From a virus (taxonomy: Duplodnaviria; Heunggongvirae; Uroviricota; Caudoviricetes), in the IMG/VR virus record IMGVR_UViG_2879765931_000001: a stretch of 30,734 bases of DNA, one strand, 5' to 3'. Positions 27,972 through 30,734 of the stretch are shown in pieces (position 1 is the stretch's first letter; each line of letters begins with the position of its first letter). Below the pieces are notes generated by a model. That model worked only from the letters and a program-made list of their open reading frames with translations, was not told where the DNA came from and did no database searches. The translations under genes and the position numbers were made by a program.

Positions 27972-28382
27972 TCATTCATACCTCCTGTCGGTAAATCTGA
28001 CACCCTGACCAATAGCCCAGGCTGTTGTGTACTCGATCAGACTTGCCATGCGCTTCACGCTCATCTGCGCGCTGCTTTCGCGAATGTTGACGCATTCTCC
28101 TTCAAGGCCGGGCAAAACATCAGCTTCCTGTTTTGTTGCCACTGCATGACCGCTGATCAACAAAACCTTCCATTGTTCTGGTTTTAACCATTTGCCGCAC
28201 CATTGAACCTGACGAGCGATATCCGCCAGCATCGCGTGAAATTTTGCGTTCTGGTCAAGATTTCGCTTGTAGTCAGTAATGCGGATGGTGACTGGCTTGT
28301 CTTTATCGAGAGGAGTTGAGAGGATGGCATTTATTGCGGCTTGCTGTTGTTGCTTAGTTCGGAGGAAGATTGTTTGCTTCAT
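27972..28382 (-). CDS. ninB: NinB (Orf family recombination mediator)
   Basis: 136 aa; ...[50 protein letters not shown]... matches lambda NinB/Orf. Confidence 0.8.
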
Positions 28383-28672
28383 CGAAAATTCTTCTCTTTA
28401 ATTCCAGCGGCTCTGATAGCTTTCATTACTGCAATTACCGTTTTGTCCTTCCCATCCTCATGCCCCATCGCATAAGCACCTTCTTCACCATCTTTCCAAA
28501 AGTCGTCATTCGATTCGGGCCAGTCGATATCCAGTTCAATAGCTGCTCGCGATGCCTGCCATATCACCCAGGCAAACTCTTTTAATTCATCGTCTCCTGT
28601 GAACTGGCTTTTGTCTTTTGACCACCAGTTTTCAAACTGTCGGTAGCTATCGTTCACTTCCCTCTCCCCCAA
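28379..28672 (-). CDS. Hypothetical acidic 97-aa protein, translationally coupled to ninB
   Basis: ORF overlapping the ninB start by 4 nt; Trp/Asp-rich; no family recognised. Confidence 0.5.
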   Translation of the reverse strand: MGEREVNDSYRQFENWWSKDKSQFTGDDELKEFAWVIWQASRAAIELDIDWPESNDDFWKDGEEGAYAMGHEDGKDKTVIAVMKAIRAAGIKEKNFR

Positions 28673-28731
28673 ATAAAAAGGCCTGCGATTACCAGCAGGC
28701 CTGCTATTAGCTCAGTGATGTAGATGGTCAT

Positions 28732-28923
28732 TTAATACTCCGTCACGTTTTCCTGTCGCCACGCCTCGTCATATTCCGATTTCGGCATATTGGCGATGTA
28801 GCTATATGGCGATCCTGATTCAAGTTGCAGGAACTGGTGCGATTGCTCGTCAAGGAACAACGGAACACCACCTTCCCAACCTTCGCCGTTACGTTGTTTT
28901 TCAAGCATCAAAACAGATGCCGG
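28732..28923 (-). pseudogene. 5'-truncated ORF fragment abutting IS911
   Basis: The 68-codon track ORF begins inside the IS911 end; only the last ~63 codons are non-IS sequence; identity unknown. Confidence 0.3.
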
Positions 28924-28931
28924 TGAAGTGG

Positions 28932-29849
28932 TCAACAAAAACTGGCCACCGAGTTAGAGTTTTTCCAGTATCGATTTTCCGATTCGTTTGGGGGTAACCC
29001 ACCGTTATATTCGTGCGGTCTTAGTGCACTGTAATATCCAACGATATAGTCCGTTATGGCGTGAGCTGCCTCGCTGAAGCTTACGTAACCCACCACCGGC
29101 ATCCATTCGTTCTTCAGACTCCTGAAGAAGCGTTCCATTGGGCTGTTATCCCAGCAGTTTCCGCGCCGGCTCATACTCTGTCTGATCTGGTATCGCCACA
29201 ATAACTGCCGGAACTGCCTGCTCGTATAATGACTGCCCTGATCGCTGTGGAACATCACCCCGCCGGGCTTACCACGGGTTTCCCATGCCATTTCCAGCGC
29301 TTTCATGGTGAGCCTGCTGTCCGGCGAGAACGACATGGCCCAGCCCACTGGTTTTCTTGCGAACAGGTCGAGAACAACGGCGAGGTACGCCCAGCGCTTA
29401 CCCGTCCAGATATAGGTCACATCACCGCACCACACCTGATTTGGCTCGGTCACGGCGAACTGCCTTTCAAGGTAGTTAGGGATAGCAACATGTTCATGAC
29501 CACCACGTTTATACCGGTGAGTCGGCTGCTGACAGCTGACCAGCCCCAGCTCTTTCATGAGCCTGCCAGCAAGCCAGCGTCCCATCTGGTAGCCTCTCCG
29601 GGTTGCCATTGTGGCGATGCTTCTTGCTCCGGCCGAACCGTGGCTGATGCCATGTAGCTCAAGTACCTGACTGCGTAATACAGCCCGTCTGCCGTCTGGT
29701 TTTTCAGGACGGTTTTTCCAGTATCTGTAGCTGCTGCGATGAACCCCGAACACATGGCAGAGTGTGACCACAGGATAATGCGCTCTGAGTTTCCCGATTA
29801 TCGAGAACTGTTCAGGGAGTCTGACATCAAGAGCGCGGTAGCCTTTTTT
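28932..29849 (-). CDS. IS911 OrfB (DDE catalytic domain; produced as OrfAB by -1 frameshift at A AAA AAG, plus 29843-29849)
   Basis: orfB frame is continuous from the slippery heptamer (...[49 protein letters not shown]...); DDE integrase motifs present (e.g. [18 protein letters not shown]). Confidence 0.85.
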
Positions 29850-30100
29850 AATATTTCATTCTCCATTTCAATGCGTTGTAGCTTTTTCCTCAGCTTACGT
29901 ATTTCGATTTGTTCTGGTGTTATCGGAGAGGCTTTTGGTGTTTTGCCCTGACGCTCATCACGCAGTTGTTTGACCCATCTTGTCATTGTGGAAAGGCCAA
30001 CATCCATAGCTTTGGCGGCATCTGCCACCGTGTATTTCTGGTCAACAACCAGTTGAGCGGATTCGCGTTTAAACTCTGCGCTAAAATTTCTTTTTTTCAT
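29798..30100 (-). CDS. IS911 OrfA (HTH transposase subunit)
   Basis: [53 protein letters not shown]...; ATG at 30100; leucine-zipper-like C-terminus. Confidence 0.9.
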
Positions 30101-30172
30101 TGGAGCACCTGTGTTGTTCTGAGGTGAGCATATCACCTCTGTTCAGGTGGCCAAATTCAGTGTGCCACTTCA

Positions 30173-30734
30173 AGCAAAATCAGAGGTAAGGAGATCAAGA
30201 CTTACGGCTGACGAATACCTGAAAATTTATCAAGCAGCAGAATCATCACCATGTTGGCTCAGACTTGCAATGGAACTGGCTGTTGTTACCGGGCAACGAG
30301 TTGGTGATTTATGCGAAATGAAGTGGTCTGATATCGTAGATGGATATCTTTATGTCGAGCAAAGCAAAACAGGCGTAAAAATTGCCATCCCTACAACATT
30401 GCATGTTGATGCTCTCGGGATATCAATGAAGGAAACACTTGATAAATGCAAAGAGATTCTTGGCGGAGAAACCATAATTGCATCTACTCGTCGTGAACCG
30501 CTTTCATCCGGCACAGTATCAAGGTATTTTATGCGCGCACGAAAAGCATCAGGTCTTTCCTTCGAAGGGGATCCACCTACCTTTCACGAGTTGCGCAGTT
30601 TGTCTGCAAGACTCTATGAGAAGCAGATAAGCGATAAGTTTGCTCAACATCTTCTCGGGCACAAGTCGGACACCATGGCATCACAGTATCGTGATGACAG
30701 AGGCAGGGAGTGGGACAAAATTGAAATCAAATAA
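30173..30734 (+). pseudogene. int: Lambda-type tyrosine integrase, 3' portion only (5' end replaced by IS911)
   Basis: From AKSEVRRSRLTADEYLKIYQAAESSPCWLRLAMELAVVTGQRVGDLCEMKW... to ...HELRSLSARLYEKQISDKFAQHLLGHKSDTMASQYRDDRGREWDKIEIK, essentially identical to my memory of the lambda Int C-terminal catalytic domain; homology begins exactly at the IS911 end. Confidence 0.85.

Follow-up and report, generated by a model that had tools for sequence, protein, structure and literature searches.

The stretch of DNA analysed here (30,734 nucleotides, referred to as the window) contains an intact copy of IS911, a member of the IS3 family, on the minus strand at positions 28924..30172. The element comprises 1,249 bp, running from TGAAGTGG to CCACTTCA, i.e. 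both its size (about 1.25 kb) and its terminal inverted repeats, which begin with TGAAGTGG, are those of IS911, and annotated IS911 copies are 99.8% identical to it. As the ends are imperfect they were not reported by the inverted-repeat finder and were read directly, positions 28924 and 30172 being the IRR-type and the IRL-type end, respectively. orfA (30100-29798, minus strand) is followed by orfB, which continues to 28932, and an A AAA AAG (A6G) site at 29843-29849 would allow the -1 frameshift that joins the two, so that OrfAB can be reconstructed as a protein of 389 aa. The identical transposase gene in locus L021 carries the HTH_Tnp_1, rve and rve_3 domains, and the IS911 copies of E. 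coli O121 differ from the window copy at three positions.

At its IRL end the element abuts a truncated λ-type int gene (30173..30734, plus strand), with the last triplet of the window being the stop codon. Only nucleotides 510-1071 of 1071 are retained, corresponding to codons 171-356, i.e. the last 186 codons, and the Pfam domain Phage_integrase (E 3.7e-41) spans residues 9-175 of this 186-residue remnant. Thus, the catalytic domain is present, whereas the arm-binding and core-binding domains of a full-length integrase are missing together with codons 1-170; intact relatives have 356 aa and contain Arm-DNA-bind_1. A preliminary description of this DNA had int cut by the IS911 end at about codon 160; the cut is real, but its position has to be corrected. 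The int remnants adjoining ybhC in the records CP026871.1, CP026810.1 and CP026765.1 are 100% identical to that of the window.

The IRR end borders on the 3' end of a toprim primase-helicase gene (28732..28923, minus strand), of which the last 63 codons (906-968) and the stop codon remain; in locus L018 and in FDAARGOS_944 these codons are continuous with the rest of a 968-aa Toprim_2 gene. A terminator-like hairpin followed by TTTTATTT (28679..28702, minus strand) lies between its stop codon and the next gene, and 'terminator' is among the features annotated beneath a match to phage mEp235 that covers the helicase, ninB and ninE genes. The next minus-strand gene (28379..28672) encodes a small protein of the phiTE_015 family, as indicated by a precomputed PF26207 assignment on the identical gene of L021; our own Pfam scan of this reading frame yielded no match. 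Its product has 92 aa as annotated elsewhere and 97 aa if counted from the first TTG. It is followed on the same strand by ninB (27972..28382, 136 aa; Pfam NinB, E 2.5e-56, profile positions 1-131 of 131) and ninE (27799..27975, 58 aa; Pfam NinE, E 4.8e-42, residues 1-58 of 58). The truncated frame, the 97-aa frame and ninB were thus correctly recognized in the preliminary description, and ninE can be added. Their supposed misplacement and wrong orientation, in contrast, is not borne out, since in all lambdoid prophages compared int is transcribed in one direction and the replication and nin genes in the other.

The nin genes were also thought to lie on the int side of an immunity region. However, the sole HTH_3 gene, a predicted antitoxin gene (27449-27757, plus strand; Pfam HTH_3, E 3.4e-11), is paired with a predicted toxin gene of the Gp49/RelE family (HigB-like; 27130-27459, plus strand; Pfam Gp49, E 3.2e-25). 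The toxin gene comes first and overlaps the HTH gene by 11 bp, which is the layout of type II toxin-antitoxin systems, and it is annotated as RelE/ParE toxin in E. coli records. The same cassette, at 97% identity, is likewise located behind ninE in E. coli VL40 and others, and at about 87% identity it is found between DUF4222 and Rha in TUM9812. No gene for cI, cro, cII, N or a Peptidase_S24 repressor was found among the genes of 20270-30734, and the remaining window matches late genes. Judged by gene content, the alleged immunity region is thus a predicted toxin-antitoxin cassette. The reported absence of xis and the early-left genes from the window was confirmed.

Next to the cassette an antirepressor-type Ash-Rha gene (26248..27090, minus strand; Pfam Phage_ASH and Phage_pRha) is split by an in-frame stop codon at 26758-26760; the gene is unbroken in two related loci (L003 and L014; 286 or 374 aa). 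Near-identity (98-99.8%) to EIEC/O121-type prophages stops at 27092. A second replication module (22846..26037, minus strand), consisting of a 304-aa initiator-like gene, a DnaC/IstB-like ATPase and a DnaB helicase, sits downstream of the nin genes, and in L018, where the upstream primase-helicase gene is intact, these genes are arranged in the same way.

The other end of the window is formed by ybhB (1..477, plus strand; annotated as such in the matching E. coli record), a chromosomal gene that flanks the λ attachment site on the bio side and marks the other prophage end. From here the order is collinear, with ybhB being followed by late genes, Q, nin, a replication gene, IS911 and the int remnant. 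In the source record CP026871.1 (GCA_002950195.1), which is 100% identical to the last 10.5 kb of the window, the stop codon of the int remnant abuts ybhC. The window therefore represents an entire lambdoid prophage that carries ipaH, is heavily degraded and occupies the λ attachment site of a Shigella-type genome. As collinearity extends from ybhB up to the int stop codon abutting ybhC, the IS911 junction is an internal deletion and not an inversion.

IS911 is flanked by GATGCCGG on one side and by AGCAAAATCAG on the other. Re-analysis detected no 3- or 4-bp repeat at these flanks (CGG vs. AGC), whereas simple IS911 insertions in related loci, serving as controls, are accompanied by the duplications GTG, GGAG, AAG and GCC. 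Moreover, the flanks belong to two different genes, int and the primase-helicase gene, each of which is uninterrupted at the respective site in relatives, where the two flanks are not adjacent. Thus, the earlier observation that an IS911 lacking a target duplication joins a truncated int to a nin-like segment on the opposite strand holds, and of the interpretation attached to it, a deletion or inversion rather than a simple insertion, the inversion is not supported. A search of 5,426 complete genomes of E. coli revealed neither junction, and as exact strings both occur solely in the source record among all sampled loci (~50). A database look-up of the 195-aa IS-int fusion reading frame gave no record, and a literature search for papers mentioning accession CP026871 found none.

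The comparison with related prophages that the preliminary description had proposed reveals where the missing DNA belongs. At the same site four sister genomes (L015, L018, L020 and L024), whose flanks are 99.85-100% identical to those of the window, contain int (nt 131-1071), IS600, the primase-helicase gene, the phiTE_015-family gene and ninB in this order, i.e. they hold the deleted DNA between the same flanks, and the order outside is unchanged. In L018 and L024 4,567 bp separate the two break points, and the window has IS911 instead. IS600 in the sister genomes also lacks a target duplication (GAT vs. GTC). As these genomes already carry the int-IS600-primase-helicase arrangement, the loss from xis through O is older and located at IS600. 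By parsimony, the ancestor of the window would have passed through this IS600 stage before a further 4.6 kb or so was lost at IS911. A deletion with one end in int and the other in the replication gene accounts for the entire arrangement.

The IS911 deletion most likely, if far from certainly, arose by recombination between two directly repeated copies of IS911. The older deletion, with its endpoints at IS600, had by then eliminated codons 1-43 of int together with xis, the early-left genes, the immunity region and the initiator gene. In the two-copy scenario, one IS911 would have inserted into int at nt 510 and a second one, in the same orientation, into the primase-helicase gene at codon 906, and recombination between them would have left a single copy with unmatched flanks. 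As compared to the sister genomes, the IS911 deletion amounts to about 4.6 kb and comprises codons 44-170 of int, one IS600 and codons 1-905 of the primase-helicase gene. The junction of IRR with CCGGCATCTG recurs with different partners at the IRL end, namely a terminase gene in L035 and DUF1133 in L037, a pattern indicative of exchange among IS911 copies; a simple IS911 insertion into DUF1133, with a GTG duplication, was found in L012 and L033. There is also precedent in the IS3 family, as deletions adjacent to IS150 result from two copies recombining with each other (PMC4173774), and Shigella is known for an exceptionally high rate of IS-driven rearrangement (PMC8072062). The presumed simple insertions should display a junction of the int 5' part with IRR in which CCACTCGCGCAGC is followed by TGAAGTGGTCAAC, and a junction of IRL with the primase-helicase 5' part that, read outward from the IS, begins with TGAAGTGGCACAC and is preceded by CTGGCATCTCCG. 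Neither insertion (IS911 at int nt 510 or at codon 906 in the window orientation) was found in the ~50 sampled loci.

In line with such an exchange, the window IS911 differs from the copies in L035, L037, L012 and L033 by a patch of nine substitutions near the IRL end (positions 246-282), the L035 copy being identical to it from position 283 onward, and a two-allele hybrid test against 13 neighbouring copies was suggestive. However, the mosaic argument is weakened by a CP026845.1 copy (L049) that shares the window haplotype except for one base, and the window IS911 may simply be another allele.

Alternatively, although with a clearly smaller probability, the deletion may have occurred in one step, mediated by the transposase, with one end of a single IS911, e.g. 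at int nt 510, attacking codon 906 of the primase-helicase gene on the same molecule and the intervening DNA being lost; a second copy would never have existed. Within this gene, a single phosphodiester bond at codon 906 is joined to IRR in three cases (the window, L035 and L037) and to IRL in three others (L012, L033 and L038). Such use of the same nucleotide in both orientations and by three IS haplotypes is expected of a preferred strand-transfer target, and the related ISEc52 is associated with non-nested deletions on both sides at the same attachment site of E. coli (L001, L006 and L007). On the other hand, IS911 transposes via a circle intermediate (copy-out, paste-in), a one-step event would require a window-like ancestor for L035 and L037, and neither target site is similar to an IS911 end, as judged by local alignment against 500 shuffles (p about 0.15-0.2). 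Furthermore, the best-studied adjacent deletions of the IS3 family proceed via a second copy and recombination (PMC4173774). Recombination between IS copies was itself considered as the source of the opposite-orientation IS911 at the same nucleotide and was rejected on logical grounds, since such exchanges never change the IS end attached to a flank. Whether IS911 ends genuinely prefer codon 906 as a target is doubtful; if they did, this would imply either a new determinant of IS911 target choice or a natural case of head-to-head insertion against a resident copy. Targeted head-to-head insertion of IS911 against a resident copy has been seen in the laboratory.

An inversion or translocation between IS911 copies that brought the nin segment to int, with the reciprocal junction elsewhere, is very improbable. 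Exchanges at the same IS911 junction do occur in other strains (the foreign terminase gene in L035, DUF1133 in L037 and L034), but both sides of the window are in canonical lambdoid order and orientation, which an inversion ending in the window IS911 would disrupt, and in the sister genomes the missing DNA is still in place, the flanks and the orientation being the same. Collapse of two direct IS911 copies and the intervening DNA into one copy during assembly has only a slim chance of being correct: the junction is known from one assembly, and IS911 is multi-copy in other sampled Shigella-type genomes (at least five copies in CP026845.1), but the source record is a single 4.49-Mb contig, and related finished genomes of the same accession series resolve two to three IS copies within a few kb at this locus (L012, L020 and L024). 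Finally, simple insertion of IS911 into a phage in which ninB naturally resides beside int is practically negligible, as a duplication is lacking, the flanks are pieces of two different genes, ninB comes after the replication gene in every intact relative and sequenced phage compared, and no such family was found among the relatives examined.

The IS911 junction is thus a case of ordinary IS-driven prophage decay, an event of an already known kind that creates no new gene arrangement. It resembles the adjacent deletions of IS150 in the rbs operon in the E. coli long-term evolution experiment (PMC4173774), which likewise have one IS at the joint, no duplication, flanks that were originally a few kb apart and an unchanged order outside; in the window, however, the deletion is nested in the older IS600 deletion and the two-copy intermediate is inferred. 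The abundance of IS elements, pseudogenes, parallel deletions and rearrangements does not differ in kind from IS-driven decay in Shigella, where ipaH genes are found amid prophage remnants and IS elements, the window being one example at the λ attachment site (PMC8072062). In Shigella phage Sf6, IS911 also resides in the early-right/nin part of a lambdoid phage and deletions of 1.2-4.0 kb occur around it, but these remove the IS and are selected in lytic growth, whereas in the window the IS stays and the prophage is defective (PMC5630979).

As only the catalytic domain of Int is left and both xis and a repressor are missing, the prophage, and ipaH with it, is probably fixed in the chromosome. 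The window provides a clean, fully resolved case of the stepwise dismantling of a Shigella prophage by IS elements, which would also fix the virulence cargo ipaH. It leaves existing knowledge of IS911, integrases and nin genes unchanged, but it illustrates that the HTH gene of a toxin-antitoxin pair can pass for a phage repressor and that the absence of a target duplication at an IS is best interpreted against sister genomes. DLP12 and Rac of E. coli K-12 are defective lambdoid remnants as well, with IS elements and missing modules, and are unable to excise or grow; the window prophage differs from them in its site and its content and carries ipaH and two replication modules.

ISEc52-bounded remnants at the same site (E. 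coli Ec40743, 23-AB02114 and Z1323CEC0015) also combine an IS911-like element in the same orientation with a truncated int next to ybhC, and the other IS end abuts a distant phage gene, the break in Ec40743 being located 5 bp from that of the window. Nevertheless, the IS elements are only about 94% identical, the ISEc52 phage is P22-like and the break points differ. An int-IS-ninB arrangement is also seen in a further sampled locus (L010), again with an IS at the joint.

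The window carries one IS911 element (28924-30172, 1,249 bp by direct reading of the sequence) with its transposase genes on the minus strand, orfA lying at 30100-29798 and the A AAA AAG frameshift site at 29843-29849. Its left end is of the IRR type (TGAAGTGGTCAACAAAA) and its right end, terminating in GTGTGCCACTTCA, of the IRL type. E. coli copies annotated as IS911 are 99.8% identical to it, three bases differ from the two copies in one E. coli O121 genome, and a 389-aa OrfAB can be reconstructed; judged by its sequence, the element looks functional. The window reads CAGATGCCGG directly left of IS911 and AGCAAAATCAG directly right of it, and re-reading both flanks revealed no 3-bp direct repeat, in agreement with the preliminary description, and no 4-bp one either. 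As simple IS911 insertions in the related loci fetched for comparison are bordered by duplications (GTG, GGAG, AAG or GCC), this lack of a duplication is informative.

To the right of IS911 lies int', a lambda-type integrase gene reduced to its C-terminal part (30173-30734, plus strand; Pfam Phage_integrase, E 3.7e-41), the end of which is the last triplet of the window. The first base kept is nt 510 and codons 171-356 of the 356 codons of intact relatives remain, so that the truncation stands and its proposed position at about codon 160 was close enough. To the left follow, all on the minus strand, a toprim primase-helicase fragment (codons 906-968, i.e. the last 63 of 968 in relatives), a phiTE_015-family gene, ninB (Pfam E 2.5e-56) and ninE (Pfam E 4.8e-42). 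In uninterrupted relatives the primase-helicase gene runs from CTGGCATCT directly into CCGGCATCTG at the break point, and int from CCACTCGCGC directly into AGCAAAATC; thus, IS911 joins pieces of two different genes, and the initial observation of an IS911 without duplication connecting a truncated int to a nin-type segment is sound. Between the primase-helicase stop codon and the phiTE_015-family gene a terminator-like hairpin followed by TTTTATTT (28679-28702, minus strand) is placed where lambda-like phages have the early-right terminator upstream of ninB. A predicted 195-aa ORF (30147-30734) has its GTG start codon within the left end of IS911 and reads out into int'; a database look-up of its product found no gene on record.

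Lambdoid prophages transcribe int and the early-left genes toward the attachment site, and cro, the replication genes, the nin genes and Q in the opposite direction. The annotated E. coli prophages compared here have the same layout, so nin genes opposite to int are the normal state and not, as had been assumed, misoriented. In these prophages, and also in sequenced phages, e.g. vB_EcoP-720R6, ninB directly follows a replication gene, which argues against a natural position beside int. The window starts with ybhB (1-477), followed by ipaH (1060-2823), encoding a T3SS effector ubiquitin ligase of 587 aa, tail and head genes on the minus strand, a lysis remnant, four tRNA genes, Q and ninH, a replication module, an Ash-Rha gene, a toxin-antitoxin pair, ninE, ninB, the phiTE_015-family gene, the primase-helicase fragment, IS911 and int'. 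Its last 10,465 bases are 100% identical to record CP026871.1 (GCA_002950195.1), a genome that we infer from its ipaH, its IS load and its size to be of the Shigella type and in which ybhC comes after int'. The chromosomal genes on either side of the lambda attachment site are both in position, and the genes between them are in canonical order. An inversion ending at IS911 would disrupt this intact order and is rejected, whereas a deletion between int and the primase-helicase gene accounts fully for the layout; of the two rearrangements originally proposed in place of a simple insertion only the deletion is retained. The arrangement with IS911 abutting both int' and the primase-helicase fragment was found in one assembly only. 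Transposase fragments lie between ipaH and ybhB, and in the source record a further ipaH-type gene lies past pgl, on the side of ybhC (L021:20003 onward). The tRNA genes (21414-21724, between Q and the holin gene) are Gly-TCC, Thr-TGT, Arg-TCT and one with a CAT anticodon, called as Met here and annotated as Ile in E. coli O121.

Look-ups of exact protein matches to NinB, to int' and to the 58-aa tail of the primase-helicase gave many Shigella-type genomes (4.4-4.6 Mb, with ipaH and abundant IS1, IS600 and IS911). Four sister loci, L018, L024 (identical to L013), L015 and L020, have flanks 99.85-100% identical to those of the window, and in all four int nt 131-1071 is joined to IS600; after it, L018 and L024 have the primase-helicase gene and ninB, and L015 and L020 an IS911. 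This IS600 is bordered by GAT and GTC, i.e. by no target duplication. Hence, an older loss predates the IS911 event and sits at IS600; to judge from the sequences compared, it comprises int codons 1-43, xis, the early-left genes, the immunity region and the initiator gene. Compared with L018, the window is missing another 4,567 bp, which IS911 replaces: int nt 131-509, IS600 and the primase-helicase sequence through codon 905. The most parsimonious assumption is that the lineage of the window went through the IS600 stage.

That the deletion depended on IS911, by whichever route, is very likely. We lean towards a route that would start from two direct IS911 copies, at int nt 510 and at primase-helicase codon 906, recombination between which would yield exactly the structure of the window. 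The junction between IRR and CCGGCATCTG is shared with two other loci, in which the IRL end adjoins another phage's terminase gene (L035) or the 5' part of a DUF1133 gene (L037); L012 and L033 carry a simple IS911 insertion in DUF1133 with a GTG duplication. Such a constant junction with varying IRL partners is expected from exchange between dispersed IS911 copies. Nine substitutions (IS positions 246-282, toward the int side) separate the IS911 of the window from the L035 and L037 copies, whereas the window and L035 copies are identical from position 283 onward, a pattern that might reflect a crossover, weakly so because a copy in CP026845.1 carries the haplotype of the window bar one base. 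For IS150, a member of the same family, adjacent deletions have been ascribed to recombination between two copies (PMC4173774), and Shigella genomes show very high rates of IS-driven rearrangement (PMC8072062).

A one-step event, in which an IS911 end attacks a site in the same molecule and no second copy is involved, is a possible but less likely alternative to this two-copy recombination. It is favoured by L012, L033 and L038, where the very same primase-helicase nucleotide (window 28923/28924) abuts an IS911 in opposite orientation (L012:8211-9459, L033:4737-5985, L038:741-1989), with IRL next to CCGGCATCTG and the other end 55 bp from IS600. Exchange between IS copies is rejected as the source of this orientation, as it never changes the IS end attached to a flank, and a separate transposition at the same bond is needed. 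Either the break point is an IS911 hot spot, or a second IS911 inserted head-to-head next to a resident IS911 end, with subsequent loss of the first copy. IS911 targets its own ends; neither the primase-helicase site nor the int site, both of which were tested, shows similarity to them.

The nine substitutions, clustered in orfA (window 29891-29927), define two IS911 alleles. Eight affect third codon positions and the ninth the first position of codon 69, with a predicted exchange of Lys69 to Glu. E. coli O121 and copies in CP026836.1 and CP026845.1 share the allele of the window, the other one occurs in 13/13 copies sampled around this prophage and in ISEc52, and the patch has the look of a gene-conversion tract.

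The nin genes had further been placed on the int side of an immunity region. However, the HTH gene (27449-27757) overlaps a Gp49/RelE-family toxin gene (27130-27459; Pfam) and is its partner, and genes for a repressor, cro, cII, N or xis are absent from the entire window; the reported absence of xis and the early-left genes is confirmed. Several E. coli prophages also have this cassette after ninE (97% identity), and in one other prophage a version with ~87% identity occupies the early-right operon between DUF4222 and Rha, i.e. it is a movable unit (27102-27785) in two settings; FDAARGOS_944 has a different toxin-antitoxin pair in the same slot after ninE, and HigBA adjoins ninB in one sequenced phage. 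Identity of 98-99.8% to EIEC/O121-type prophages stops at 27092, and the 97%-identical ninE-linked cassettes match from 27102. At the cassette and the neighbouring antirepressor genes two phages seem to have recombined long ago. An in-frame stop (26758-26760) splits the antirepressor-type Ash-Rha gene, of which E. coli O121 and several Shigella-type genomes have an unbroken version (286 or 374 aa). Downstream of the nin genes lies a second replication module (22846-26037) with initiator-like, DnaC-like and DnaB genes, which is unusual. This hybrid order predates the IS911 event, as it is found in L018 alongside an uninterrupted primase-helicase gene. Two replication modules thus stand in series in the window (22846-26037 and 28732-28923) and in L018 (6745-15537), and the primase-helicase of relatives contains the intein-type domains Hom_end_hint and LAGLIDADG_3.

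We take int' to correspond to lambda Int residues 170-356, i.e. to the catalytic domain, the arm- and core-binding domains being missing. As xis, the repressor, the lysozyme-to-portal block and more are also gone, the element presumably can neither excise, nor replicate as a phage, nor lyse, and its ipaH would be fixed in the chromosome. All parts belong to known families, and the process is textbook IS-driven prophage decay.

In E. coli Ec40743 ISEc52 (L001:9250/9251), a different element with ~94% identity to IS911, abuts the same int gene in the same orientation, its break lying 5 bp upstream of that in the window (30168-30173). At the lambda attachment site of three E. coli strains (L001, L006 and L007) the losses on both sides of ISEc52 are non-nested. 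Similar decay recurs at other sites, where IS911 or a related IS adjoins whole or truncated integrase genes of other prophages (L010:7579-10411, L041, L044 and L047), e.g. as int-IS-ninB near gyrA in L010 and as int'-IS911-replication genes in L044. A second, IS-free deletion in the window (20147-20155), with 9 bp (CGCCTGCGG) common to both sides, joins a lysozyme fragment of ~20 codons to a fragment of the head-protease (S49 peptidase) gene and removed most of lysozyme, the Rz-type lysis gene and, presumably, the terminase and portal genes.
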